Source of the DNA: an uncultured Clostridia bacterium
GTDB lineage: Bacteria > Bacillota > Clostridia > TANB77 > CAG-508
Length of the DNA stretch: 64,000 nucleotides
Assembly: GCA_944391835.1 (NCBI GenBank)
Contig: CALXVA010000001.1
Coordinates: 3,897 to 67,896, forward strand
Direction of reading: 5' to 3'
The translations under genes were made by a program, and so were the position numbers. The notes under the pieces are model-generated. The model was not told where the DNA came from and did not search any database. It saw only the letters and a program-made list of their open reading frames with translations. This document shows positions 3,974-58,595 of this stretch, piece after piece; position 1 is the stretch's first letter; the number at the start of each line of letters is the position of its first letter.

Positions 3974-4217
3974 TAGAACATAAATTTTGTTAATTTCTTA
4001 TTACAAATTTAGCCGAGTAGGTATGTGTATTTTTTTATTTATATTTCCGTCCCCCAACTGCGTACAAACTGTATAAACAAAAACTAAAGTTTTGTTTAAC
4101 AGTTTGTAAACTTGTCGGTCCCCACCTTAAGACTTCAATATAAATAAAAAAATACACATACCTACTCGGTTTAAATATAAAGAAACTAAAGAAATTAACA
4201 AAATTTATGTTCTAGTC
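3974..4217. repeat. ~245-bp palindromic MITE-like element: ~75-bp inverted-repeat arms (3974-4048 vs 4139-4217) around a central imperfect palindrome
   Basis: left arm actagaacataaattttgttaatttctt...ccgagtaggtatgtgtatttttttatttatat is the reverse complement of the right arm atataaataaaaaaatacacatacctactcgg...aacaaaatttatgttctagt; the centre also has its own dyad caaactgtataaacaaaaac/gttttgtttaacagtttg. Confidence 0.75.
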
Positions 4218-4978: not shown

Positions 4979-5914
4979 TTATTTGCTTTCTTTCTTTTCG
5001 CTATCTAATTTTTCTTCTTTCTTTTTATCCTTTTTTAACTTTTGCCTATGCTTATTCTCACTTTCTTCATTTCCAAATTTCTTTGTAACTAAATTTTTTA
5101 TTAGAATATTTTTTAAAGCTTCTTCTTTTAAATCTACTATTAAATTACCATCCTTTGCAATAGAGATTTTACTTGTTTCCTCTGATACAACAATAGCTAT
5201 TGCATCAGTTTCTCTTGAAATTCCAATTGCAGCTCTATGTCTTGTTCCTAAGCCTTTTGATATGTTTTTGTCATCAGATAGTGGTAAAATACATGCTGCT
5301 GCAGCTATTTTATTTTTGCTTATCACTACTGCTCCGTCGTGTAATGGTGTGTTAGGTACAAATAAATTAACTAATAGCTGAGGTGATACTTCAGCATCTA
5401 TTTTTACACCAGTATCCATTATGTCGTCTAGTTGTATATCCCTTTCTATTACAATTAGCCCACCTACCTTATTGTTTGATAATTCTTTTGCAGCAATTAC
5501 AACTTTATATATATCTTCCTTTGTTTTTGTTTCTAAACTTTTTTCTAAGCCTATTCCTAAAAATTTAGTAAACTTATTTGTTCCTAATTGTTCTAGTACT
5601 CTTCTTAATTCTGGTTGAAATATTACAATCAATGCAATTACACCATAAGTAGTAAAAATTGTTAAAAACCAATTTAATATTCTAAGTTCAAATATTCCAC
5701 TTAGTATTGTGATTAAAACTATTAATACAATACCTTTTAGTAATTGCCAAACTCTTGAACTTCTTGCTGACTTTATGAATTTATATGCTATATATCCTAC
5801 AATTAGTATATCTAATATAAAAATTATTAGTTTAAATGGATTGTTTGAAATATCTGTTACATATTCTGCTATGCTTTCTCCAAGTCTATTTATATTGGCC
5901 GAAAATACATTCAT
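4979..5914 (-). CDS. cdaA: diadenylate cyclase CdaA (membrane-anchored DAC domain) with Lys/Glu-rich C-terminal tail
   Basis: N-terminal TM region LIIFILDILIVGYIAYKFI...QLLKGIVLIVL resembles B. subtilis CdaA; DAC motifs DGAVVI, LGTRHRAAIGIS; ATG at 5914 with RBS AGAGGA. Confidence 0.8.
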   Translation of the reverse strand: MNVFSANINRLGESIAEYVTDISNNPFKLIIFILDILIVGYIAYKFIKSARSSRVWQLLKGIVLIVLITILSGIFELRILNWFLTIFTTYGVIALIVIFQPELRRVLEQLGTNKFTKFLGIGLEKSLETKTKEDIYKVVIAAKELSNNKVGGLIVIERDIQLDDIMDTGVKIDAEVSPQLLVNLFVPNTPLHDGAVVISKNKIAAAACILPLSDDKNISKGLGTRHRAAIGISRETDAIAIVVSEETSKISIAKDGNLIVDLKEEALKNILIKNLVTKKFGNEESENKHRQKLKKDKKKEEKLDSEKKESK

Positions 5915-6138: not shown

Positions 6139-7119
6139 TTAATAGTTATAAAGTCCTGAGAATATTGTCGATATATCAAAAGGTACTATTGTTTCTGGTG
6201 CACCATAATCAATTCCATATGTTTCTACTCTTATGCTCGTTATAACAGGCTCTTCTTTTGGTGTATCAGATGCTATTGTTTCACCATCTTCATCCTCTGG
6301 TGCTTCAAAATCCTCATCTACTTCGGTATCTCTATAGTACACCTCCACATTTGCTACTTTTTCTACTACATCCATACCCTCTATTACTTTTCCAAATGGT
6401 GCATATAGTCCATCTAAATCTGTATTATCTGCTGACATTATAAAGAATTGGCACCCTGCTGAATTATATCCTTCTGCTGCATATCCATATGTGCTATAGT
6501 CACTTCTTGCCATAGATATAACTCCTTCTTCATGTTTTATATTATTGTCATTATCTCCATTAGCTATAAATTCTCCTACAATGTTATATTCAGTATTTAG
6601 AAAATCGTCAAACTCTGAATTTACACTTGCATTTTCTTCGTTTTCGTGCTCTTTTTCAAATTCCTTTTTATATTTTTGGAAATCAGAATAAGAATTTATA
6701 GTTGTATTATCGTTTGTAGTATATTCTCCATCATAAAACTCATTCAAAATTTTCTCAAATAATTCCTTATTATTTAAAACTTCGTCTAAATCATATATAT
6801 CGCTAAGTTTAGGAGATGCTGTAGTATCTCCATCTTTTGCCCCTCCCTGTATAACAAAGTCTGGCATTGTTCTATGGAAAGTAGATCCATCATAAAATTC
6901 TCTGTTTGCTAATCTAATAAAATTAGCTACTGTATTTGGTGCTTTATCAGGATATAATTCTACTTTAATTGTTCCATAATCTTCTATTTCTATAGTAGCT
7001 ACTGGATTTGGTATATTCATTGTATATTTTTTATATACTCCGTAACTAGCAAATGCTATACCTACTATAACTAAAATAATTCCTAATATTAATAAAATTC
7101 TAACTAATGTTTTATTCAT
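6139..7119 (-). CDS. cyclophilin-type peptidyl-prolyl cis-trans isomerase with N-terminal TM anchor and acidic insert
   Basis: motifs FHRTMPDFVIQGG and GYAAEGYNSAGCQFFI are typical of cyclophilin PPIases; N-terminal TM helix. Confidence 0.7.
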   Translation of the reverse strand: MNKTLVRILLILGIILVIVGIAFASYGVYKKYTMNIPNPVATIEIEDYGTIKVELYPDKAPNTVANFIRLANREFYDGSTFHRTMPDFVIQGGAKDGDTTASPKLSDIYDLDEVLNNKELFEKILNEFYDGEYTTNDNTTINSYSDFQKYKKEFEKEHENEENASVNSEFDDFLNTEYNIVGEFIANGDNDNNIKHEEGVISMARSDYSTYGYAAEGYNSAGCQFFIMSADNTDLDGLYAPFGKVIEGMDVVEKVANVEVYYRDTEVDEDFEAPEDEDGETIASDTPKEEPVITSIRVETYGIDYGAPETIVPFDISTIFSGLYNY

Positions 7120-7135
7120 CTTTCTATTCCTCTCT

Positions 7136-8200
7136 TTACATTATTAAATTATCAAATACAAATTGTTCTTGCATTCTTTTTAAGGATTGCTTAATAGTCC
7201 TTGCTCTAATTTCTCCTATTCCATCTACTTCATCAAGTTTTGGAATATCTGCAACCAATATGTGTTGGAATGATTTAAAAGTTTTTACTAAGTTTTCCAC
7301 TATAGTGCTTGGCATTCTTGGTATTTTATTTAATATTCTATAACCTCTGGTGTATACACCAACTTCATCATAATTGTCAAAATCCTCATAACCTAATAAA
7401 TTAGCTATTTTATCTGGTTTTATAAGATTCTCATACACAATGTTTTTAAGTTCTAATAGAATTTTTTCTGCATTTCTTTTCTTACCAGGTGCAATATAGT
7501 CTTTAATAATCAAAAGTTCCTCTTTTTCTAAGTCTCCAACAGTTTCATCTAGTTGCATTTCTAATAATCTGCCCTCTTCGCCTAATTCATCTATCGCTCG
7601 TTCAACCTCAGTTGCAATTTTCATTACTAATTCAGCCCTTTGTATTACTGTAATTACATTTTCTAATGTTACAATATCATTAAATTCATATTCATTAAGT
7701 ATATTTATTTTATTATCAAATACTTTCTTATATTTTTCTACAATTTGTAAAGCTTGATTAGCTTTTGAAATAACATCTGCAGAATTTCTTAGCACATATC
7801 TTTCATTTCCTCTAAATAAAGTTATTATACCTCTTCTTTGCGATATACTTATTACTAGAGACCCCGTTTGTTTTGCTGTACGCTCTGCAGTTCTATGTCT
7901 CGTACCAGTTTCTGTTGTATAAATTTCAGGCGATGGTATTAATTGAGTATTCGCATACAAAATTTTCTTAAAATCAGAACTTAATATAATAGCCCCATCC
8001 ATTTTAGCGAGCTCATACAACTTAGCTGGGCTAAAATCTACGTCCAATTTAAAACCACCATCTACCAGCTTTAGAACTTCCTCATTATCTGCTATTGCTA
8101 TCAAAGCCCCTGTTTTGGCATTTAGAATATTCTCTAGTCCATTTCTAATTGGAGTACCAGGTGCTATTAGCTTTAAAACCTCTTCAATTCCTTCTGCCAC
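7136..8200 (-). CDS. disA: DNA integrity scanning protein DisA (DAC domain plus C-terminal HhH)
   Basis: IAPGTPIRNGLENIL...DGAIILSSDFKKILYANTQLIP...TGTRHRTAERTAKQTG is collinear with B. subtilis DisA; ORF-track start 8257 is a GTG reading through a REP element, and the likely true start is the GTG at 8200 after AAAGGAG. Confidence 0.85.
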   Translation of the reverse strand: MAEGIEEVLKLIAPGTPIRNGLENILNAKTGALIAIADNEEVLKLVDGGFKLDVDFSPAKLYELAKMDGAIILSSDFKKILYANTQLIPSPEIYTTETGTRHRTAERTAKQTGSLVISISQRRGIITLFRGNERYVLRNSADVISKANQALQIVEKYKKVFDNKINILNEYEFNDIVTLENVITVIQRAELVMKIATEVERAIDELGEEGRLLEMQLDETVGDLEKEELLIIKDYIAPGKKRNAEKILLELKNIVYENLIKPDKIANLLGYEDFDNYDEVGVYTRGYRILNKIPRMPSTIVENLVKTFKSFQHILVADIPKLDEVDGIGEIRARTIKQSLKRMQEQFVFDNLIM

Positions 8201-8227
8201 TGTAAATTTCACTCCTTTTGTCACCTT

Positions 8228-8270
8228 AGTGCCTGTCACAAAAGTGCCATTTGGCACTTTCAGGGACAGG
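8228..8270. repeat. REP-like element family 1 (nested hairpin CCTGTCAC / GTGCCATTTGGCAC / GGGACAGG)
   Basis: palindrome GTGCCATTTGGCAC flanked by CCTGTCAC and GGACAGG; same architecture at 9653, 10696 and 42004. Confidence 0.8.
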
Positions 8271-8271
8271 T

Positions 8272-9645
8272 TTACCTTAACTGCAATCCCTTTATTGCCT
8301 CATTTATATTTCTGACACCTATTATATCTAATTTATAATTTTCTTTCAAGAGTTTTTTGTTACTTTCTGGTATAATACATTTTTTAAATCCTAATTTTTC
8401 TGATTCCTTTATTCTTTTTTCTATCATATTTACTGCACGAACTTCTCCTGTTAGACCAACTTCACCTATTGCTACAACATCTTGTGGTATGCTAATATTC
8501 CTAAAGCTAGATGTACATGCTAATATAATGCCCAAGTCTACAGCAGGCTCTGCTAATTTTATTCCACTTACAACATTTAAATATACATCTTGTCCTCCTA
8601 AGTTTATGCCTGCCCTTTTTTCTACAACAGCAATTAGAACAGCTAATCTGTTAAAATCTATTCCATTTGCAGTTCTTTTTGGTATTCCAAATACACTTGG
8701 TGTAGTTAATGCCTGTAGTTCAACCAAAAGTGGTCTTGTTCCCTCCATACTAGCTACAATTACCGAGCCAGCAGGATTGTCGTTTCGCTCTGAAATAAGA
8801 ATTGATGATGGATTTGTAATTTCTACCATACCTTCATTTTTCATTTCAAACATTCCTACTTCATTTGTTGAGCCAAATCTATTTTTTACACTTCTTAATA
8901 TTCTGTATGAAAAATATCTTTCTCCCTCTAAGTATAGAACTGTATCTACCATGTGCTCCAATACTCTAGGTCCTGCTATATTTCCATCCTTTGTAACATG
9001 ACCGATTATTATTGTAGTAATTCCATTATCCTTGCACATTCTCATAATTCTTGAAGTAATTTCTCTAACCTGGCTAACAGTACCTGCAGCTGAAGTAATC
9101 TCTTCTGAATACATTGTTTGAATAGAATCTATAATAACAAGTTTCGGATTTACAGACATTATTGTTTCTTGAATATTATCAATATTTGTTTCACCTAAAA
9201 ATAATAAATCATCATTATTAATGTTCAGTCTATCAGCTCTAATCTTTACCTGTTCTGCCGATTCCTCTCCAGAAACGTATAAAACTTTTCCATCGCCTTT
9301 GACCTTATCGCAAAGTTGTAAAATTAAAGTAGACTTACCAATTCCAGGCTCTCCTCCTACTAGCACAAGTGAACCTTTAACCAAGCCTCCTCCCAAGACT
9401 CTATCTAACTCACCTATACCAGTGCTTGTCCTTGCCATTTCTATTCCTTCTACCTCTTTTAACTTACGAGGCATACTTCTCTCTTTGTTTGCACTACTCT
9501 TTCCCCCAGATGTACTTGAGGTATTTGCAACCTTTTCCTCATAAAAACTATTCCACTCATTACATGCTGGACACTTTCCTAGCCATTTTGCAGATTCATA
9601 TCCACAATTACTACACACAAAAATCGTTTTTGCTTTTGCCATCAT
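8272..9645 (-). CDS. radA: DNA repair protein RadA (Sms)
   Basis: zinc finger CSNCGYESAKWLGKCPAC, Walker A GGEPGIGKST, KNRFG motif, Lon-like C-terminus; true start probably MMAKAK after AAGGAGG (track start 9660 is a GTG). Confidence 0.9.
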   Translation of the reverse strand: MMAKAKTIFVCSNCGYESAKWLGKCPACNEWNSFYEEKVANTSSTSGGKSSANKERSMPRKLKEVEGIEMARTSTGIGELDRVLGGGLVKGSLVLVGGEPGIGKSTLILQLCDKVKGDGKVLYVSGEESAEQVKIRADRLNINNDDLLFLGETNIDNIQETIMSVNPKLVIIDSIQTMYSEEITSAAGTVSQVREITSRIMRMCKDNGITTIIIGHVTKDGNIAGPRVLEHMVDTVLYLEGERYFSYRILRSVKNRFGSTNEVGMFEMKNEGMVEITNPSSILISERNDNPAGSVIVASMEGTRPLLVELQALTTPSVFGIPKRTANGIDFNRLAVLIAVVEKRAGINLGGQDVYLNVVSGIKLAEPAVDLGIILACTSSFRNISIPQDVVAIGEVGLTGEVRAVNMIEKRIKESEKLGFKKCIIPESNKKLLKENYKLDIIGVRNINEAIKGLQLR

Positions 9646-9652
9646 TTCCTCC

Positions 9653-9706
9653 TTTGGCACTTAAGTGCCTGTCACCGAAGTGCCATTTGGCACTTTTGGG
9701 GACAGG
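9653..9706. repeat. REP-like element family 1 (with extra GGCAC-TTAA-GTGCC hairpin)
   Basis: tttGGCACttaaGTGCCTGTCACCgaaGTGCCATTTGGCACttttGGGGACAGG. Confidence 0.8.
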
Positions 9707-9712
9707 TTCACT

Positions 9713-10507
9713 TTATTTTTTATTGTTTTCTATTATCCTCATAATTGTTCTTTTACTAATTCCTAATAGCCTAACTATCTGCTCTGTCTGAATTCCTTCA
9801 ATTTGAGTTATTTTATAAATATATTTATTTCTAGTCTCTTTACTATATAATAAAATCTCTAGCAGATTCTCCACTCCGATAACTGTTTTTATATATTGTA
9901 TTGCATCTTCGTCACTCAATTCTCCCTCAGTTTCTAATTCTATTTTCAAGTATTCTTTATTATCAATCTCAGCATTATATTTTATAAACTGTTTTAATGC
10001 TTCTTCCTTAACGTCTCCAAATAGGCTAAGTATAAAATCCGTATCTGTTATGCCAAAATCTTTTTGTCCGATGTATTCTTGGTAACTACTCCATTCATAT
10101 ACATCTATGCTACTCATTTTTGCCTTACATGGATTATTATGTATATATCTTATTAAATTAAATAAGTATTTATCATCATTTACACTAATACTTCTATATC
10201 TATCTTGAAATAAATGTCCGACTCTATTATATTCCTTATTAAAATACTTAGCATATGAAGAACATAATTTATGCATTATTTTAGACATTCTATCATTTTC
10301 ATCATATATTACAAAGTGTACGTGATTAGTCATTAAAACAAAAAGATACACCCTAAAACTGTATTCTTCTTTTGTTTTCTTCAATAGATTTATAAATTTT
10401 TTTCTATCATTTTCGCATGTAAATATATCTTGCTTATTATTTCCTCTAATAATTATATGATATGTTTTAGTAATAGTTTTTAAATTTTCTCGTGCTATAC
10501 GGGGCAT
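9713..10507 (-). mobile_element. IS200/IS605-like Y1 (HuH) transposase with C-terminal DnaA-like HTH; RayT-like REP-associated tyrosine transposase candidate
   Basis: HuH motif LMTNHVHFVI and downstream conserved Tyr region (RYIHNNP); C-terminal HTH (LLGISKRTIMRIIENN); start MPRIAREN at 10507 after AAAGGAG; REP-like elements within ~200 bp on both sides. Confidence 0.7.
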
Positions 10508-10695
10508 TATTTTTTCTCCTTTCATTGTTTTTTATTAGTTTATTTTAGAATATTAAAATCACATTTAACCCCTATATCATATTTTTATTTGAACATAAGC
10601 CACATTAAAAATATAGCACATTTTTTATAAATATGCTATATTTTTCACTAAATATTTACAATTTATTATGTTATCTATACTGTCTAATTGCTCAA

Positions 10696-10746
10696 CCTGT
10701 CCCTAAAGGTGCCAAATGGCACTTTGGTGACAGGCACTAAAGTGCC
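10696..10746. repeat. REP-like element family 1 (inverted orientation relative to 9653 copy)
   Basis: CCTGTCCCtaaagGTGCCAAATGGCACtttgGTGACAGGCACtaaaGTGCC. Confidence 0.8.
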
Positions 10747-12674
10747 AAAATGAACATTGCGTGTGACCATGCAAGACCTATTACCCAATTTGGTTGCATT
10801 GTGTGGTTGTCTATTTGTTCTCCTAAAAATCCATGCTTATTACTGCTATTTATTATAAAATCTATACATTCTTGTGCTTTTTTCTTTTCACCTATTTCTT
10901 TGTAGTACATTGCCATCCATAATGTTGAAATTGCCCAAGGGCTATTTCCTCCTCTATAGTGGTCTCCTTCAAATCTTAGATAGCCTCCTGTGTATGTTCT
11001 AAGTCTCATGTTTATTTTTTCTATTGTGTTGGTTATTTTCTTTTCGTTTGGTTTGTACATTTTAAATGGTACTACTGTTCCTAATACGCTTATGTCTGTT
11101 ACTTCGTCGTTTGTGTTTCTTTTTAATGTTTTTGTGTTTTCGTTATACATATTCGCTTTTATGTATTTGTCCATTTCTTTTTTATAAAAGTCTATCTTTT
11201 TACTTAATTTATTTATGCTTTCTAGTTTTAATCTATTTTTTTCTTCGTATTCTGGTTTTAGAATTTCATACATTTCTAGAATTGCATTAAATGCTGAGTA
11301 GATGCTTGCAAGTGAATATAAATGTACTCCTTCATGCATCTCCCACAAATCATAGCTTACTGGTAGCTTGTTTCTTTCTTCTGTGTGATATGTTTTTTCT
11401 ATTTCATTTTTTACTATATCGCTATCATCATGTAATCCTAAAATGTTGTCCATATATATGCACAAGAATTTTACTGCGCTCTCACACATTTTTAGCATAT
11501 CTTTTAAGAATTTTTTGTCCTTTGTAACTTTATAATGTTCATATGCACCATATACTACTCCTGCTGTTTCGTCTATTTGATATCCCCAGCAAGGTGCTAA
11601 ACGTCCGTCTGTGTAGAATCTTTGTTCCCACATTCCATTTCTGCTTTGTGTGTTTTTGCAAAATACTTTGTAGAATCTTTCTGTTTCTTTATTCATTTTT
11701 AACTTATCGAATGCTCTTGTTATAAATACTGCATCACGTGGCCAACAATATCCATATCTACCACATTGGGTTAGATTTTCATCTACTTCTACTGCTGCTG
11801 CAACTCCTCCTGTTTCTTTGTTTGTTAGCAGTGGAAATAGCAATATGCTCCTTTTATATACCTTATTAAATTTTTTATTATACTCACTATTTTCTTCTTT
11901 TAGTTCTATATTGATATGTTCTTTTACATATTTTTTCCAATATTTTTGTACTGAACTTTGTTCTGCTTCTACGTCTTGCTTTCTAATATTTTCTATGTTC
12001 TTCCACATTTCCTCTGCATTAACTTTATCGTTTTCTAGAATGTATAAATATATAACAAGTTCTTTAGTTTCACCTGGTTTGATAACTCCAAGTTCATAAT
12101 TTATGCTAGAGTCTGAACTCATACCTATATAGTCTTTATCATGTATTACACCACTTTCTATGTTATTGTCTGTATCGTTTAACTGATGTGCATTTATATT
12201 CTTTTTAGAAAACATACACAATGTGTTATTATGACTATATTGCATTAACACATTGTTTTCTATTTTCGAGCCTACCATATTGTTTGGATTTGATAATAGT
12301 TTTGAGTGTACTAAAAAGTTTACATTCAAATCTATTGAGTTGTTATTTTTGAATATATATCTTTTTATCAAAACACTATTTTTCATAGATACAAAATCTA
12401 TTTGCTTAATTTGCAAATTAAAATATGTGTTTTCTATTTCGGTGTTTAATATATTTGTATCTTCTGTATAATACTGATTGTATCTATTGTTTTGGTCTTG
12501 ATGTAAATAAATTATGCAAGAGTCATTTATTTTGACTCCTGTATGAAAAAAATCTAAAAATTGTTTAAAGTCTGGTGTATTGTACATTAACCTTAGCATT
12601 TCACCATGATATGTGAAGCTTGCAGTTATATCTTTTCCTCCAATTATTGCATCATTAAAATACTTGTTTTTCAT
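10737..12674 (-). CDS. glycoside hydrolase family 15 (glucoamylase/glucodextranase-like) protein
   Basis: GH15 hallmarks GYCWPRDAVFITRAF and catalytic-region SYDLWEMHEG; likely start MKNKYF at 12674 after AGGAGAG; the last codons (ILAL*) are read from the REP element. Confidence 0.65.
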   Translation of the reverse strand: MKNKYFNDAIIGGKDITASFTYHGEMLRLMYNTPDFKQFLDFFHTGVKINDSCIIYLHQDQNNRYNQYYTEDTNILNTEIENTYFNLQIKQIDFVSMKNSVLIKRYIFKNNNSIDLNVNFLVHSKLLSNPNNMVGSKIENNVLMQYSHNNTLCMFSKKNINAHQLNDTDNNIESGVIHDKDYIGMSSDSSINYELGVIKPGETKELVIYLYILENDKVNAEEMWKNIENIRKQDVEAEQSSVQKYWKKYVKEHINIELKEENSEYNKKFNKVYKRSILLFPLLTNKETGGVAAAVEVDENLTQCGRYGYCWPRDAVFITRAFDKLKMNKETERFYKVFCKNTQSRNGMWEQRFYTDGRLAPCWGYQIDETAGVVYGAYEHYKVTKDKKFLKDMLKMCESAVKFLCIYMDNILGLHDDSDIVKNEIEKTYHTEERNKLPVSYDLWEMHEGVHLYSLASIYSAFNAILEMYEILKPEYEEKNRLKLESINKLSKKIDFYKKEMDKYIKANMYNENTKTLKRNTNDEVTDISVLGTVVPFKMYKPNEKKITNTIEKINMRLRTYTGGYLRFEGDHYRGGNSPWAISTLWMAMYYKEIGEKKKAQECIDFIINSSNKHGFLGEQIDNHTMQPNWVIGLAWSHAMFILAL

Positions 12675-18534: not shown

Positions 18535-18737
18535 TATATAGTTCCTAGGCAGTATGTATATTTATCAAATTTTTTTGTTCCTTGGTGTCGCAACCATTTT
18601 ATAATAAAAAGAAAATAAATTTTTCTTTTTATTATAAAATGGTTGCTCCAAATCGCACTCGCTTCAGAGAAGCTCGTTTGGTCGCTTACGCGTCACTACA
18701 AAAATTCTCTAAATATACATACTACCTAGGATAAAAG
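18535..18737. repeat. compound palindromic element: outer 24-bp inverted repeats (TCCTAGGcAGTATGTATATTTA) enclosing a perfect 26-bp-arm AT hairpin (18590-18646) and a GC-rich block
   Basis: 18590-18646 gcaaccattttataataaaaagaaaa-taaat-ttttctttttattataaaatggttgc; outer IR 18542-18565 vs 18710-18733. Confidence 0.7.
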
Positions 18738-18743
18738 TAAAAA

Positions 18744-18776
18744 CGTGGACAAAAAGGAGTGTCCCCTTTGTCCACG
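18744..18776. repeat. REP-like element family 2 (GTGGACAAA..GGAGTGTCCCC..TTTGTCCAC hairpin)
   Basis: cGTGGACAAAAAGGAGTGTCCCCTTTGTCCACg; other copies at 27328, 32119, 32194, 35998, 36076. Confidence 0.8.
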
Positions 18777-27420: not shown

Positions 27421-28975
<1,555 letters not shown>

Positions 28976-28980
<5 letters not shown>

Positions 28981-29782
28981 TGTGTTTTAAAATCTGACTC
29001 CTTACACTATTCCTCTGCTCTTCAATTTGCTCCACATAAGTTTTTGGTTTACTTGATTTGTCATCTTTGGCTTTTAGCAAATTTTTAAGTTTTTTCTTTT
29101 CTTTTATTTTATATGTATAGTGCTGTTCAGCAAAATTATTTTTAGCTTGCCTTTCTATCTTCTGCATTTCTGTTTCAGGAATGTACTCCTGTTCTTTTCT
29201 TTCCCTATTATAGTCAACTATTTTTTTAACTGGATTTTTATATATTGCTTCTGAATATTTTTCTATGTCCGGTCTAAAATATATGGTCTCATTTACATAG
29301 TTTCTTATAAGCTTTCTCTCCTTACGTGTAAATGCCTCGTCTGGTAATCCTAAGTTGTTATATTTCCATATAATATGCCTATCCATATTAGAATATTTTT
29401 TATAATTAATTTTTTCGTAATTATATTCTATTTCAAATTTTAAACCTTCTATTCTTACTGTTACACTTGTCCATAATCTATGCTTCTCTTTTTTAAATAT
29501 TTCCCATATTTTTTTTATTTGAGTATATAATTTTCCTACTAGTTTTATGTATTCTTCTTCATTTAAGCTAAATTTATTTGGTATTTCATAAACATTTACA
29601 GGATTCTTTTTTAAGATTCCTCGTGGAAAATAATAAAAGAATAATTCTCCTGTTTCTATTCCCTCCATTTTCTCTTCTACAGAAGCATATAAGTATATTC
29701 TATCCCATTTTTCTGGTATTAGATAAAATAATTGTTTCTGTAATTCAGAGTATACCTTTCTTATCTCTGAATTTTGTATCAT
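28976..29782 (-). CDS. DUF600 (YezG/EsaG-type) immunity-protein homologue with ~110-aa C-terminal extension, inserted between gpmI and eno
   Basis: collinear with staphylococcal DUF600 proteins: IPEKWDRIYLYASV, FFYYFPRG, VYEIPNKF, LYTQIKKIWEIFKKEKHRLWTSVTVRIEGLKFEIEYNY, WKYNNLGLPDE. Confidence 0.7.
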
Positions 29783-35997: not shown

Positions 35998-36107
35998 TGT
36001 GGACAAGAGGGACACTCCTTTTTATCCACACTTTAAATTTTTACATGATTTACTATTTATGATAGTGTAGTGACTGTGGGCAAGAAGGAGTGTCCCTCTT
36101 GTCCACG
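35998..36107. repeat. pair of REP-like family 2 hairpins (35998-36030 and 36076-36107)
   Basis: GTGGACAAGAGGGACACTCCTTTTTATCCAC and GTGGGCAAGAAGGAGTGTCCCTCTTGTCCAC with complementary loops. Confidence 0.75.
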
Positions 36108-41851: not shown

Positions 41852-42003
41852 TATATTACCTCCAACTTATATTTGTTATATGATTTATTTAATTTACTAC
41901 AATCAAATGATTATTGGTTATAATATAATATGTATTACTGTTAATTTTAGTTAATCGTATATTAAATACTTTCCTCTCGAAAAGCAACACTATTTTCCTT
42001 AGA

Positions 42004-42054
42004 CCTGTCACCAGAAGTGCCAAATGGCACTTTTGTGACAGGCACCTGAGTGCC
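42004..42054. repeat. REP-like element family 1
   Basis: CCTGTCACCagaaGTGCCAAATGGCACttttGTGACAGGCACctgaGTGCC. Confidence 0.8.
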
Positions 42055-42109
42055 AAAAAAAGAAGCAACGTAATTGTTGCCCCCTAAATTTCATTCATCT
42101 TTTTTTATT

Positions 42110-44801: not shown

Positions 44802-44929
44802 TTTAGTTTTTCCTCCTTTTTAGAATTATTACTATTATGTAAAACTTTTTATTTTTTTATTTTAGAAAACTAATTTTCTTTTTATTCTTTGGTTACAAAA
44901 CAAATCAAAAGCTATTTTATTCTTTCATT

Positions 44930-45180
44930 TGCTTTCATAATTCGAATTAGAAGCGCATCGCTTATAATCAGAATTTCAAAACAAATCAAAAACTATTTTA
45001 TTCTTTCATTTGCTTTCATAATTCGAATTAGAAGCGCATCGCTATAATCAGAATTTCAAAACAAATCAAAAGCAAGTAGTGCTAGGAAAGCTAGCTAAAA
45101 TTTTTGAGATTATACGTATTGTATATCGAAAAAATTTTATGCGACGCTTGACAACGCAATACGAAGCTTTTCATTTGTTT
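44930..45180. repeat. MITE-like family 3 copy (45068-45180) preceded by a tandem duplication of a ~63-bp unit carrying empty TIR pairs (44936-45066)
   Basis: caaaacaaatcaaaagcaagtagtgctaggaaagctagct...ttgacaacgcaatacgaagcttttcatttgttttg with TIR caaaacaaat[c/g]aaaag; upstream ttcgaattagaagcgcatcgct(t)ataatcagaatttcaaaacaaatcaaaaactattttattctttcatttgctttcataa twice. Confidence 0.8.
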
Positions 45181-45182
45181 TG

Positions 45183-45551
45183 CTAGTCTTTTTTGCTCTT
45201 ACTAACCAACTTCCTAGGACCTTTTCTTGTACGAGCATTAGTTTTTGTTCTTTGTCCTCTAACAGGTAAGCCTTTTCTATGTCTTAGACCTCTATAGCAT
45301 CCTATTTCTGTAAGTCTTTTAATATTTAAAGCAACTTCTCTACGTAAGTCTCCCTCTACTTTATAACCTTCCATAGCTTTTCTTATTGCTGCTACTTGGT
45401 CATCTGTTAAATCTTTAACTCTTGTATCTGGATTTACATTTGCTGCTTTTAATATTTTTTGTGAGCTTGTTAAACCTATACCATATATGTATGTTAATCC
45501 AATCTCAACTCTTTTTTCTCTAGGTAAATCAATTCCTGCTAAACGAGCCAT
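45183..45551 (-). CDS. rpsM: 30S ribosomal protein S13
   Basis: [26 protein letters not shown]. Confidence 0.95.
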
Positions 45552-50730: not shown

Positions 50731-50785
50731 TTTAAAATCTCCTTTCTAACTAAAAGATTTTGCTCTTAGTTTATTTTAGATTATA

Positions 50786-50906
50786 TGTTTAAGTCAAAAG
50801 CGAGTATTGCTAGGCGAACGAATAAAAATTTTTGAGATTGTACGGGGTGTACATCGAAAAAATTTTTATGAAGTTCAACAACGCAAGACGAAGCTTTTCA
50901 TTTAAA
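50786..50906. repeat. MITE-like family 3 copy (rplR-rplF spacer)
   Basis: gtcaaaagcgagtattgctaggcgaacgaataaaaatttttgagattgtacggggtgtacatcgaaaaaatttttatgaagttcaacaacgcaagacgaagcttttcattt. Confidence 0.85.
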
Positions 50907-50909
50907 CAA

Positions 50910-51449
50910 TTATTTTTTACCTGCTTTACCTTCCTTACGTCTAATATGCTCTTCAGCATACTTAATACCTTTTCCTCTATATACTTCTGGTGGTCTTTTT
51001 GTTCTTACAACTGCTGCTGTTTGGCCAACTAGTTCTTTGTCTATTCCTCTTACTGTAATATGGTTAGCATCTGGAACATCAAAAGTAATTCCTGCTGGTG
51101 GATCCATCTCAACTGTGTGAGAATATCCTAAGTTCATTACTAATTTATTTCCTTTCTTTTGAGCTCTGTAACCTACACCATTGATTTCTAAATCTCTTTT
51201 ATATTCATGAACAACACCTTCAATCATGTTGTTTATTAATGTTCTTGTTAAACCATGTAAACTTCTATTAGCTGGTTCATCATCACATCTTGTTATTGTT
51301 AAGACTTTATCATTTAAAGTAACTGTCATATTTTTATGTAAGTCTTTTTCTAATGTTCCTTTTGGTCCTTTTACAGTTATGTGATGTCCATCTATTTTAA
51401 CTTCTACACCTTCTGGTACATTGATAGGTTTGTTTCCTATTCTTGACAT
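50910..51449 (-). CDS. rplF: 50S ribosomal protein L6
   Basis: MSRIGNKPINVPEGVEVKIDGHHITVKGPKG. Confidence 0.95.
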   Translation of the reverse strand: MSRIGNKPINVPEGVEVKIDGHHITVKGPKGTLEKDLHKNMTVTLNDKVLTITRCDDEPANRSLHGLTRTLINNMIEGVVHEYKRDLEINGVGYRAQKKGNKLVMNLGYSHTVEMDPPAGITFDVPDANHITVRGIDKELVGQTAAVVRTKRPPEVYRGKGIKYAEEHIRRKEGKAGKK

Positions 51450-51477
51450 CTTCTTATTTCCCTCCTTCTTTTTTCCA

Positions 51478-51597
51478 GAATTAATGAAAACCTGCGTATT
51501 GCTATGTCAATCTTCGCTTCAAAATTTTCGATGTACATATGTACTATCTCAAATTTTTAGCTTGATTTCCTTGCACTACTTGGTTTTGATTAATTCT
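51478..51597. repeat. MITE-like family 3 copy, inverted orientation (rplF-rpsH spacer), 14-bp TIR gaattaat[g/c]aaaac
   Basis: gaattaatgaaaacctgcgtattgctatgtcaatcttcgcttcaaaattttcgatgtacatatgtactatctcaaatttttagc...gttttgattaattc. Confidence 0.85.
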
Positions 51598-51631
51598 TAA
51601 TTAATCAAATTACATTTTATCAACTTATCTT

Positions 51632-52030: not shown

Positions 52031-52094
52031 TTTATTTTCCCTCCTTCTTTTAAAATTGGATTTTGCACATTAAATATTGATTTTCAAGCGAATT

Positions 52095-53435: not shown

Positions 53436-53702
53436 TTTTACTCTTGTCTTAAAACGAATTTAGAACGAGTAATGCTAGGCAATTAAAATTTAAAATACCG
53501 GAGGCGTACTTTTTTCCACGCCAAAGAATTTTTAAATTTTAATAACAATTCTTTATTACTGTTATAAATCATTTTATTTAGTAGTCTTTCAAAGAAACAA
53601 GTAGTGCTAGGAAAAATTAATTTCAAAACCGGAGGTGTGCTTTTTGCTACACACGAGGATTTTGGGATTAATTTTGACAACGCAAGACGCCGTTTATTTT
53701 TA
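53436..53702. repeat. two tandem divergent family 3-related elements (about 53440-53560 and 53578-53700) filling a 354-bp rplX-rplN spacer
   Basis: both carry agta(a/g)tgctagg and ccggagg(c/t)gt...loops; the second ends in ttgacaacgcaagacgccgttt like canonical copies; the spurious ORF 53483-53725 lies across them. Confidence 0.7.
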
Positions 53703-56088: not shown

Positions 56089-56370
56089 TTACTTTGTTGT
56101 TGTAGTTGTTTTCTCTCCTGAATGTCCTTTAAATGTTCTTGTTGGTGCAAACTCACCTAATTTATGTCCTATCATTTCTTCTGAAATATATACTGGTACA
56201 TGTTTTCTTCCATCATGTACAGCTATTGTATGTCCAACCATTTGTGGATATATTGTAGAAGCTCTAGACCATGTCTTTATTACTTCTTTTTTTCCACTTT
56301 CATTCATTGCTTCAATTCTTTTTAAAAGTTCTGGTGCAACAAATGGAGCTTTTTTGCTTGATCTTGACAT
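56089..56370 (-). CDS. rpsS: 30S ribosomal protein S19
   Basis: [20 protein letters not shown]...[16 protein letters not shown]. Confidence 0.95.
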
Positions 56371-56395
56371 TTAACTATTCCTCCTTTATAAGATT

Positions 56396-57223
56396 TTATT
56401 TTCTTCTCTTAACCATGAATTTATCTGTTCTATTATTTTTCTTTCTTGTCTTATATCCAAGTGCTGGTTTACCCCAAGGTGTCATTGGTCCTGCGTGTCC
56501 AACTGGAGCTCTACCTTCACCACCACCATGTGGGTGATCTACTGGGTTCATAACAGAACCTCTAACTGTTGGTCTCCATCCCATGTGTCTTTTTCTACCA
56601 GCTTTACCAAGTTTAACATTTTCATGTTCTTGGTTTCCAACTGTACCCACTGTAGCTTTACATACAGACATTACAAGTCTCATTTCTCCTGATGGTAATC
56701 TTACGTGAGCATATTTTCCTTCCTTAGCCATTAATTGTGCTTCTTGTCCGGCAGCTCTAACTAATTTTCCACCTTGACCCGGATTTAATTCTATGTTGTG
56801 AATCATAGTACCAACTGGTATATTCTCGATTCTCATACAATTTCCTGGTTTAATATCTGCTTTATCTCCAGATATTACTGTTGCACCATCTGTTAATCCT
56901 ACTGGTGCTAATATATATGCCTTTTCTCCATCTTCATATTGAATTAGAGCTATATTTGCGCTTCTATTTGGATCATATTCTATACCAATAACTGTTGCTG
57001 GCATATCTACTTTATTTCTTTTAAAATCAATTATTCTATATTTTTGTCTATTTCCTCCACCTTGATGTCTAACTGTGATTTTACCTTGTGCATTTCTTCC
57101 TGCTTTTTCTTTCTTTGTTGTAATTAAAGATTTTTCAGGAGTTTTTTTAGTAATTTCACTATAATCTAAAACTGTCATGTTTCTTCTTGATGGTGTATAG
57201 GCTTTGAAATGTTTCATTCCCAT
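56396..57223 (-). CDS. rplB: 50S ribosomal protein L2
   Basis: [21 protein letters not shown]...[10 protein letters not shown]. Confidence 0.95.
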
Positions 57224-57237
57224 TTTTTTCTCCTCTC

Positions 57238-57624
57238 TCGAATTTATGAAAAACTTCGTCTTACGTTGTCAATCTTCGCAAATGTTTCCTCGATATACAC
57301 TCGTATTATCTCGTCAACATTATACTCGATTTCCTAGTAATACTCGTTTTTGCTAAATTCTCTACTCTACTTTCTTAATAAATTTACGGATTTTTTCCTG
57401 CTCCGTATTGCAGATAAAATTTATTTTCCGGGTTATTTCCCGATAGTTTTTTACAATTATAAAACGGATTTAAATCACGCCGTCTTTTAACTCCACTTTC
57501 CTAAGACAAATCAAAAATGGTAGATTGCTAGGAAAACAAGTAAAAATTTTTGAGATAGTACTTTGTGTACATCGAAAAAATTTTTATGAAGTTTGACAAC
57601 GCAAGATGCCGTTTTTCATTTGTC
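57238..57624. repeat. 400-bp rplW-rplB spacer holding two family 3 elements in opposite orientation (57238-57353 inverted; 57505-57624 direct) around a further hairpin segment
   Basis: 57238 tcgaatttatgaaaaacttcgtcttacgttgtcaatcttcgc...tcctagtaatactcgtttttg is the reverse complement of the family consensus; 57505 ctaagacaaatcaaaaatggtagattgctaggaaaacaagtaaaaatttttgagatagtactttgtgtacatcgaaaaaatttttatgaagtttgacaacgcaagatgccgtttttcatttgtcttaag with 17-bp TIR. Confidence 0.85.
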
Positions 57625-57972
57625 TTAAGCTCCCATAAATTCATCAATAGAATCTTTATACTTCTTACTTAATTTAACTTCTTTTCCACCTTTAGCAAGG
57701 TAAGATTTTTCTGAAGCATTTGTATCTATTGTAACGATTGCTTTTTTCCAGTCAGATGTTTTTCCAACATTTCTTCCAACTCTTTTTTCTTTTCCTTTAA
57801 CCATTACTGTATTAACATTTAATACCTTAACTTCAAATAATTTTTCTACAGCATTTTTTATGTCTATTTTTGTAGCTTTTTTATTTACTTTAAAAGTGTA
57901 CTTTCCTTCTTGTATTCCATCGCTACTTTTTTCAGTAACAACTGGAGCTATTATTATATCTTCTGCCACCAT
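57625..57972 (-). CDS. rplW: 50S ribosomal protein L23 (with ~20-aa C-terminal extension)
   Basis: [24 protein letters not shown]; 115 aa against the usual ~95. Confidence 0.9.
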
Positions 57973-58595
57973 TATGCGTACACCTCCTCTAATTTTTTAA
58001 CAGTATCTAATGTAATAACAAGATTTTTGTATTTTAATAAATCATATACATTTATTGTATTTACTAGAGTTGTTTTTACTCCTTCAATATTTCTTGCTGA
58101 TTTTTGTACTGTTTCATTCTTTTCTGGTAATAGGATTAATGTTTTTCCTTCTACCTTTAGGTTGTCTAAAGCTTTAACCATTTCTTTAGTTTTAATTTCT
58201 TTTAATGGTAAGCTATCTACAACTACTAATTCTTTTTCTAATACTTTTGAGCTTAAGCAAGATTTAATTGCTAATCTCTTTTCTTTCTTATTTACAGTAT
58301 ATTTGTATGAACGAGGTTTTGGACCTAAAGCTATACCACCTTTAATCCATTGTGGAGCTCTAATGCTTCCTTGTCTTGCTCTACCTGTTCCTTTTTGTCT
58401 CCAAGGTTTTCTACCACCACCACTAACTTCTGCTCTTGTTTTAGTGCTTTGTGTACCTTGTCTTTGATTAGCTAAAAAGTTAACTAAAACGCTATGTACA
58501 ACAGCTTCATTTGGTTCAATACCAAATATTTCGTCTTTTAAGTCAACTGTGCTAACTTTTTTACCTTGTATATCATATACATCTATTTTAGGCAT
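57972..58595 (-). CDS. rplD: 50S ribosomal protein L4
   Basis: [34 protein letters not shown]. Confidence 0.95.

Follow-up and report, generated by a model that had tools for sequence, protein, structure and literature searches.

The stretch of DNA analysed here (the 'window'; 64,000 nucleotides of a contig from an uncultured Clostridia bacterium) encodes an S10-spc-alpha cluster of ribosomal-protein genes on its minus strand; our subject is the long spacer that separates two of these genes, rplW and rplB, and the family of hairpin-forming repeats found within it. GC content across the window is low (0.29–0.32) and both GC and AT skew are strongly negative on the plus strand, identifying the minus strand as the purine-rich coding and leading strand. 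The rplW gene (ribosomal protein L23, 115 aa) occupies 57625..57972 (minus strand), with its TAA stop codon at 57625-57627, and rplB (ribosomal protein L2, 275 aa) lies at 56396..57223 (minus strand); both were taken from the list of open reading frames (ORFs) and identified through Pfam, by matches of Ribosomal_L23 and Ribosomal_L2_N/_C to identical proteins in metagenome contigs. The spacer between them, 57224-57624, is 401 bp long.

Working along the spacer in the direction of transcription, we see three parts: a sense-oriented member of the repeat family, a motif of ~60 nt that lies upstream of rplB, and a decaying, reverse-oriented family member. The rplW-proximal ('A') copy, at 57496..57635 on the minus strand (covariance model, 125.5 bits, E 5e-27; nhmmer 57506-57625(+)), is a ~130-nt imperfect hairpin, the outer stem of which is formed by CUUAAGAC pairing with GUCUUAGG and takes in the whole of the rplW stop codon, as well as the last two nucleotides of the preceding Ala codon; its local fold is predicted at -36.8 kcal/mol (z -5.8). 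The rplB-upstream motif follows at 57386..57446 (minus strand). Below this, the rplB-proximal ('B') copy, at 57230..57368 (105.6 bits, E 3e-22; nhmmer 57240-57358(-); local fold -30.1 kcal/mol), reads in its own sense along the plus strand, opposite to the operon, and sits between the motif and the ribosome-binding site (RBS) of rplB. The Shine-Dalgarno region of rplB, read from the sequence as GAGAGAGGAG (57230..57239, minus strand), overlaps the flank of the covariance-model hit and adjoins the B copy itself at its 3' end, as delimited by nhmmer; it is unpaired in the predicted fold, the last ~20 nt of the minimum-free-energy (MFE) structure being free. The preliminary description of this locus had already placed two opposed family copies here, and repeat finding, an nhmmer profile and the covariance model all bear this out; its labels 'direct' and 'inverted' refer, however, to the plus strand, and in the transcript it is the rplW-proximal copy that is sense and the rplB-proximal copy that has the rare reverse orientation.

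Both copies belong to a family of palindromic repeats, ~125–140 nt long, which we describe by a covariance model (R1) of 138 positions. A census in which one genome per species was scanned with the apical consensus returned at least 115 stretches, and the set analysed with the model comprises 158 hits at E<1e-6 in the window plus 99 loci drawn from at least 93 genomes; relatives were surveyed as 8-kb stretches of draft metagenome-assembled genomes (MAGs), ~0.95 Mb in total. Within the window there are eight full copies (84–144 bits), two remnants and one footprint, confirming the repeat family that had been proposed, and all but one of the eight full copies belong to the ribosomal-protein cluster. 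The carriers are gut MAGs from human, rabbit, chicken, goat and mouse, nearly all named Clostridia or Clostridium and including Clostridium sp. CAG:508, CAG:567, CAG:575 and CAG:273; from these names we infer that they correspond to GTDB family CAG-508 of order TANB77, an uncultured, genome-reduced order of clinical interest (PMC11680825). Among the matches listed, the family is chromosomal and limited to this clade of uncultured low-GC gut Clostridia; an exact-pattern scan of viral contigs and a blastn search of plasmid and phage collections gave no match. An Rfam 15 scan of the window returned only a tRNA at gathering score, and at a permissive E-value the region 57100-57750 gave only matches of E 4–9, far below gathering scores. 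We found no published description of the family in the literature on stop-codon-linked palindromic repeats or on TANB77 repeats, and the family itself appears to be undescribed.

Every copy is a long imperfect hairpin complete in itself, and its asymmetric internal loops are conserved. In a model-guided alignment of 150 family copies, standard pairs fill 93.0% of pair cells as compared with 72.4 ± 0.3% after shuffling (0 of n=500 shuffles), 41 of 42 pairs change on both sides, and the covariation score is 0.514, versus 0.155 for shuffled alignments and no more than 0.10 with slid partners; RNAalifold agrees. Across 64 edges joining orthologous family copies we count 176 compensatory double changes and 83 single-sided ones, with unpaired positions conserved as well as paired ones. 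Asymmetry and conservation go together in an internal loop, where GUUGUC faces UCCUA, and in the apical stem; the element ends, AAAUGAAAAGC ... GCUUUUGAUUU, pair with each other. The element is asymmetric, since the model gives no more than 18–37 bits when applied to the opposite strand of these loci. Between species, element cores are 0.71–0.80 identical, as compared with 0.60–0.62 for the downstream 60-nt flank and a baseline of 0.57. Local folds of the other copies range from -28 to -39 kcal/mol, with z from -4.3 to -8.6.

The element normally sits at the 3' end of a cistron, its pairing beginning at or immediately beside the stop codon, in a single orientation and mostly in ribosomal-protein or other high-expression operons. 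Between co-directional genes, 110 of 117 copies (94%) share one orientation, and in convergent contexts all seven (7/7) abut the gene for which they are in sense orientation. An ORF of at least 60 codons precedes 123 of 152 unique copies, ending 3–16 nt before the core TGAAAAGC. Whole-region MFE folds proved unreliable for placing the stem base, as A-rich coding ends mispaired with U-rich flanks; anchored stem extension puts the first paired base within the stop codon in 60/119 copies, at 0 to +2 in 22/119 and as much as 9 nt inside the coding sequence in 27/119. With copies aligned in sense, the exceptions to this anchoring are reverse copies, second tandem copies, contig edges and three copies that have the U-tract of a terminator from a T-box leader immediately in front of them (GGTGGTACCACGG ... 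GCTTTTTT; L053 ~7050-7243, L115 ~5480-5668, L032 ~1850-2031); as these three begin just past the U-tract, the element can evidently abut a terminator in place of a stop codon. The genes upstream are most often those for L6 (13), L10 (11), S7 (10), S12 (10), GrpE (7) and NusG (7), with L5, S13, L23, L14, RpoB, Pta and others also represented, and about two thirds of copies follow ribosomal-protein, NusG, GrpE or RpoB genes; a further 13 junctions in these operons are empty in every case. Filled junctions are 136–176 nt longer than empty ones and keep the original 11–51-nt spacer, together with the RBS of the next gene, downstream of the repeat; the element therefore forms the stop-proximal end of the spacer. 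As a separate observation, the UGA of the core (AAUGAAAA), where kept, is in frame with the upstream stop in 60/118 copies versus 39 expected, generating a tandem stop, an excess that may be overstated because orthologous copies are not independent.

Returning to the rplW-rplB spacer, a comparison of 18 metagenome contigs that encode identical L23 or L2 shows it to be structurally polymorphic, with lengths of 260–465 bp. The B copy and the middle segment are present in 18/18 of these, and the rplW-proximal copy takes four forms: intact; half-replaced, with its 5' part swapped for a full copy of another subfamily plus linker; largely deleted (L009); and absent (L012). A recombination hotspot had been suggested for this spacer, and allele replacement and deletion do occur at the rplW-proximal copy; recombination between the opposed arms is not what we see. 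Across six species (the window, L097, L123, L100, L077 and L119; L2 84–96% identical) the spacer measures 209–544 bp and its long versions carry the same repeats. A sense copy follows rplW in five of the six genomes, whereas the B copy is found only in the window species, L097 and L123. In these three the A copy is 96–99% identical at the same site, though the L23 of L123 is only 75% identical, and retains 92% Watson-Crick pairs against a family mean of 93%; the B copy shows 52–68% identity between species and 81–84% Watson-Crick pairs. On these comparisons, the B copy is decaying and the A copy is kept.

The middle segment of the spacer behaves differently. The preliminary description had picked out a third hairpin-rich segment between the two copies but had made it part of one composite repeat; it is neither filler nor a piece of the repeat, being an rplB-specific upstream element, separate from the hairpin family and conserved across the clade (6/6 species). 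Its first hairpin is CGGG-AAAUAA-CCCG (57429-57442), followed by GGAAAAUAAA, and its second is ACGGAGCAGGAAAAAAUCCGU (57386-57406), giving a consensus of TATC-stem-GGAWAATAAA plus a second small hairpin, or, as a layout, a C-N-N-G/C-N-N-G hairpin, GGAWAAUAAA and then a second hairpin around GGAGCAGGAAAA. The stem of the first hairpin shows compensatory changes across the six species (CGGG/CCCG, CUAG/CUAG, CUGG/CCAG and CGAG/CUCG). Each of the 24 loci with an rplW-rplB spacer holds the pattern exactly once, and none of the other loci (0/109) has it; in the five other species it lies at L097 ~4092-4170, L123 ~2345-2432, L100 ~2267-2345, L077 ~1952-2030 and L119 ~1544-1590. No Rfam match was found for the motif, which may be a ribosomal-protein leader.

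How copies come and go can be read from comparisons between genomes. Copies cluster by site: those at the same site in different genomes are 0.77 identical, and those at different sites of one genome 0.68, against a background of 0.69. For 70/123 copies the most similar copy occupies the same site in a different genome, and for only 3/123 does it lie elsewhere in the same genome. As similarity within genomes shows no excess, there have been no recent intragenomic bursts. Occupancy of individual junctions is patchy (5/13, 6/17, 7/18 and 12/17 genomes), losses leave 5' footprints, and otherwise close species may carry different subfamilies at the same junction. Identity reaches 95% or more for 22 pairs of cores that come from different sites in different genomes, again with no excess within genomes. 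Full copies beside a stop codon are often trailed by 5'-truncated older copies; partial nhmmer matches are uninformative as a census of these, remnants of other subfamilies being too divergent.

A same-species contig (L043), 98.5% identical to the window over the operon, differs from it by four presence/absence differences in 7 kb, and each is a replacement of the whole spacer that includes the last codons and stop codon of the preceding gene. In the rplF (L6) region (window 50740-51450) identity to L043 drops to 93–95%, as compared with 98–100% for the rest of the operon, which suggests that this tract was imported by recombination, carrying the flanking repeat copies with it. We saw no target-site duplication in the filled/empty comparisons (L012 versus the window; L043 versus the window at L5->S14 and S8->L6), where the alleles differ over whole spacers; because they do, these alleles are not fresh insertions. 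Spacers would instead appear to be exchanged by recombination anchored in the conserved flanking genes, with targeted insertion as a possible alternative.

Our preferred reading, held with moderate confidence, is that the copies in the spacer, and the family at large, are lineage-specific cistron-end hairpin elements of a REP-, ERIC- or MIRU-like kind that act on mRNA, and that the long stem possible between the A and B copies is incidental. According to this reading, the element would be co-transcribed and fold locally as a hairpin at the end of the cistron, where it could protect the upstream message from 3' exonucleases and/or serve as a site for double-strand-specific processing. A ribosome reaching the stop codon would have to melt the base of the stem, and close translational coupling would be replaced by independent initiation of the next gene at its intact RBS. 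Copies would arise, be lost and pass between lineages mainly by recombination of whole spacers between conserved genes.

Saying this, several observations weigh against an mRNA-level role. Transcription and replication orientation are confounded, since 119/123 copies follow inferred leading-strand genes; by local purine skew only 4/123 copies are discordant, and these are probably mis-assigned. A stem flush on the stop codon is not required by any of the proposed RNA functions, and the patchiness of occupancy means that no single junction needs the element. The pairing itself is also awkward: wobble pairs make up less than 1% of cells, G-U is rarer than A-C in the mRNA sense (4 versus 26 events on edges between orthologous copies; 4 versus 9 distinct positions), and 4-fold sites show no transition bias. 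Pairing almost entirely of the Watson-Crick type is unlike the prediction for selection on a sense-strand RNA helix alone, and fits a constraint at the level of DNA (a single-stranded hairpin, a cruciform or quasipalindrome correction) or a structure on the antisense strand. As a test of strand, the preponderance of A-C over G-U is suggestive, not decisive.

Much of this would sit comfortably with a possible, if distinctly less probable, explanation: that the family is a selfish or neutral, non-autonomous palindromic element moved as single-stranded DNA, either a palindrome-associated transposable element (PATE) derived from IS200/IS605 or something REPIN-like. Such an element would insert 3' of a short A/T-rich target, stop codons included, its orientation set by the target and the replication fork, and its hairpin would matter to a transposase and not to the host. 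The strong orientation bias, confounded as it is with replication direction, the Watson-Crick-only pairing and the lack of target-site duplication at the junctions examined, as expected for the IS200/IS605 class, are consistent with this idea, as are patchy occupancy with different subfamilies at one junction and near-identical cores at different sites in different species. A full copy at the stop with 5'-truncated older copies downstream, seen in the window (ORF268->eno, L14->L24, S13->S11), in the type B strain allele and in L097, points the same way, and the three copies that begin at a T-box terminator U-tract indicate that a stop codon is not strictly required. A PATE is expected to insert 3' of a short specific target without duplication, in an orientation tied to the lagging-strand template; here the left end is fixed at a stop codon or U-tract, there is no duplication, and the strong orientation bias is confounded with transcription. 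Against mobility, we find no sign of recent intragenomic transposition (0.68 versus 0.69; 3/123 nearest neighbours), within-species presence/absence differences are whole-spacer replacements and not clean insertions, unpaired loops are conserved in old orthologous copies, and the wobble asymmetry would favour the antisense strand, which is not the lagging-strand template. Opposed copies flank only ribosomal-protein genes (L6, S8 and L1), no conserved target oligomer beyond TAA/TAG is seen at the left ends, no long element bounded by family termini is seen in the 8-kb draft-MAG stretches, and a tblastn search for an IS200-like TnpA was empty in ~0.95 Mb, a weak test in that the query was approximate.

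Two further versions, which we put forward jointly and only tentatively, would make the family something not yet described: a cistron-end element maintained by the host, or a new mobile element that homes to gene ends. In the first, the base of the hairpin would sequester the stop and last codons, and a dedicated factor would read the loops GUUGUC/UCCUA and the apical GAUGUAC/GUACUAUC. In the second, the element would find conserved genes by pairing of its 3' terminus with their final codons, for which there is an anecdotal hint: the 3' arm of the outer stem tracks a synonymous difference in rplE (AAGAAUUAA/UUAAUUCUU versus AAAAAUUAA/UUAAUUUU). If the first version were true, ribosomal-protein operons in an uncultured gut clade would be 'punctuated', with the termination of cistrons physically linked to the processing or stability of their mRNA.

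We regard as improbable a role exerted purely on DNA, be it cruciform or hairpin extrusion in highly transcribed operons, bound by topoisomerase, gyrase or a nucleoid protein, or a function-less product of template-switch repair. Binding by topoisomerase, gyrase or nucleoid proteins has been proposed for some REP/BIME elements, template switching of the kind known from quasipalindrome mutagenesis could yield double changes without selection, and the near-exclusive Watson-Crick pairing and enrichment in the most highly expressed operons would both be in keeping with it. Against it, a cruciform has near symmetry, whereas 94% of copies lie in one orientation and reverse copies decay; the asymmetric internal loops stay unpaired and conserved rather than being 'perfected'; and nothing at the level of DNA would explain why the element should lie flush with the stop codon.

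Similarly improbable, to our minds, is the model developed from the preliminary description, in which the opposed copies pair into one composite stem-loop of ~120 bp in the S10-operon transcript that is itself the functional unit, governing mRNA stability or cleavage between rplW and rplB. A long stem is certainly possible in silico: the inverted-repeat arms of the two copies (55 nt) are 78% complementary, and folding the whole spacer pairs A with B at -121.8 kcal/mol, against -75.1 ± 5.5 for shuffled sequences (z -8.6) and ~28 kcal/mol better than the sum of three local folds, so predicted stability is high; the A+B arrangement also recurs in three species lineages (window, L097 and L123). 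Identity between the A and B copies, however, is 0.70 in the window and 0.65 and 0.54 in the two other species, at or below the level of paralogs; as 70% is the ordinary paralog level (0.68), nothing indicates selection for A-B pairing. Because each copy is a complete hairpin by itself, local hairpins would be favoured in co-transcriptional folding, each arm folding upon itself during transcription. The B copy decays whilst the A copy is kept, L100, L077 and L119 have no B copy and the strain allele L012 no A copy, and elsewhere the family works as single copies. The opposed arrangement is not unique to this spacer, given that L042 (4513-4792) and L078 (2770-3049) carry closely opposed family copies, separated by a 34-nt gap, upstream of the gene for L1. 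The long stem is best seen as an incidental by-product of two adjacent family members, not a selected structure.

Very improbable indeed is an intrinsic terminator or attenuator (A-tract, hairpin, U-rich 3' arm) or a ribosomal-protein binding site that regulates the operon: AAAUGAAAAGC ... GCUUUUGAUUU does resemble a bidirectional terminator and the junctions coincide with autoregulatory sites of E. coli, but a scan of 56300-58100 finds no terminator-like site, the stem beside the U-rich stretch is weak and A/U-rich, copies sit between essential genes of one operon, no Rfam hit was obtained with all curated ribosomal-protein leaders included, and copies are found after GrpE, Pta, RpoB and a T-box leader as well. 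Promoter-like sites in the spacer are not above shuffles, and a TTGACA conserved in the family, with CATAAA 18 nt later, in the reverse copy upstream of rplB failed the rules of the promoter scan. We also rejected a small ORF starting from the 5' arm (AUGAAAAGC...), its AUG being present in only ~55% of copies and in differing frames. A miniature inverted-repeat transposable element (MITE) of the terminal-inverted-repeat type fits only in part: size (125–140 nt), copy number (8 in 64 kb) and the pairing of the AAAUGAAAAGC/GCUUUUGAUUU ends are as for such an element, but there is no target-site duplication, a test weakened by whole-spacer differences, and orientation is 110 versus 7, not either way.

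Of known systems, the closest in kind are the REP/BIME sequences and REPINs (REP doublets forming hairpins) that are associated with RAYT transposases (PMC3116915, PMC2817692, 10.1101/2021.07.10.451892). Like the present family, REPs and REPINs are extragenic, multi-copy palindromes that form hairpins (~100 nt for REPINs), are long-lived and largely vertically inherited; they are co-transcribed at the 3' ends of cistrons, as the present copies would be. The family has no sequence similarity to them, and is a single 125–140-nt hairpin instead of two 20–25-nt REPs with a GTAG head; it is conserved over the whole 125 nt, asymmetric loops included, with no repeated short unit; 94% of copies have one orientation, with the stem base on the stop codon and a preference for ribosomal-protein operons; and its host is an uncultured Clostridia clade, not Proteobacteria, in which no RAYT was found over ~0.95 Mb with an approximate query. 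In E. coli, Liang, Rudd and Deutscher reportedly found in 2015 that many REPs sit no more than 15 nt from a stop codon, where they influence the translation of the gene before them by causing ribosomes to stall. The ERIC/IRU elements (127-bp enterobacterial imperfect palindromes), the Correia elements of Neisseria and the pneumococcal BOX/RUP elements resemble the family in size, in whole-length hairpin potential and in occupying transcribed intergenic regions within operons, and effects on mRNA stability or on processing by RNase III/RNase E have been reported for them. They differ in occurring in both orientations without anchoring to a stop codon, and the TA duplications and IS-like terminal repeats of Correia and RUP are not seen in our family.

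Three other systems share particular features. MIRUs are intercistronic within operons, have one orientation with respect to transcription and overlap flanking stop/start codons with their ends, but are direct tandem units of 40–100 bp with small ORFs and no long hairpins. The RNase III signals between the early genes of phage T7 are related intercistronic hairpins of fixed orientation, whose upper and lower stems are parted by a conserved asymmetric internal loop, and after cleavage the upstream message retains a protective 3' hairpin; the analogy is functional only, the T7 sites being shorter and not flush with stop codons. Integron attC sites are imperfect palindromes of 57–141 bp that directly follow the stop of the preceding ORF in fixed orientation; it is on the complement of the mRNA strand that their structure is preserved, which agrees in direction with the wobble asymmetry of our family. 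An attC identity was rejected: the ends AAAUGAAAAGC/GCUUUUGAUUU lack RYYYAAC/GTTRRRY core sites, and the neighbours are core ribosomal-protein genes, not cassettes. We know of no integrase in the context of the ribosomal-protein hairpin family.

Within the cluster, the remaining full copies follow the genes for S13, L6, L5 and L14, in addition to L23, with reversed copies before L6 and L2. The copy after rplN (L14; 53576..53716, minus strand, 83.8 bits) is of a divergent apical subfamily, and behind it lies a 5'-truncated second copy (53452-53575, minus strand, 21.7 bits) that is missing in the same-species contig L043, as is the copy after rplE (L5; 52341..52481, minus strand, 110.8 bits). 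A comparison of S14->S8 spacers reveals after rpsN (S14) a ~20-nt 5'-terminal footprint of a lost copy, AAUUCGCUUGAAAAUCA (52074..52094, minus strand); the full copy is kept in 7/18 genomes compared. The second reverse copy, between rpsH (S8) and rplF (51468..51604, plus strand, 116.2 bits), ends just before the RBS of L6; orthologous B copies are present in L103 and L052, and it is missing from L043. The copy after rplF (50779..50917, minus strand, 141.3 bits) occupies a junction filled in 12/17 genomes, and that after rpsM (S13) lies at 45051..45190 (minus strand, 144.1 bits). The latter stands in a 381-bp S13->S11 spacer together with two 81-nt tandem units (44893-45043; 97% identical), each ending in the family 3' terminus TTTTGATTTGTTTTG; from their sequence, these resemble 5'-truncated copies or hybrids that have piled up after the full one. 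The eighth full copy follows a 268-aa ORF upstream of eno (28845-28985, minus strand, 114.5 bits), beside an apical remnant of another subfamily (28800-28844, minus strand, 27 bits).

The window and its relatives have further features besides the family. A second, unrelated repeat, ~60 nt long and more G+C-rich, with GTGCCAAATGGCAC-type palindromes in both orientations, occurs at 8213-8279, 9646-9715, 10694-10753 and 42000-42064. An inverted pair of 43-nt segments, 17 kb apart (18733-18775 / 35999-36041; 84% complementary), contains GTGGACAAAGGGGACACTCC-type hairpins and is unrelated to the family. Also unrelated are two strain-variable, hairpin-forming insertions placed right after stop codons of the same operon: one of 135 nt in L29->S17 of L011 (5829-5965), and one in rplB->rpsS of L001 (4579-4676; also in L005 and L006), where 98 nt replace the 3 or 25 nt of other strains. 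Finally, the L23 of the window (57625-57972, minus strand), at 115 aa, has a ~15-residue insertion ahead of its C-terminal IDEFMGA, a length kept in all relatives seen; a typical bacterial L23 has roughly 95–100 aa.

Palindromic intergenic repeats are common, though the function of most is still debated. The rules followed by the present family are unusually clean—one orientation, a stem base on the stop codon, a preference for the most conserved and most highly expressed operons, conserved loops and filled and empty alleles within a species—and make the question of 'selfish DNA or cis-acting signal?' directly testable. For annotation, the covariance model now detects the element specifically, and the conserved motif upstream of rplB is flagged alongside it. 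For the biology of the clade, what stands out is that the normally compact S10-spc-alpha cluster is broken up, with hairpin-bearing spacers about 140–180 nt longer than empty ones, which bears on how ribosomal proteins are synthesised in stoichiometric amounts without tight translational coupling.

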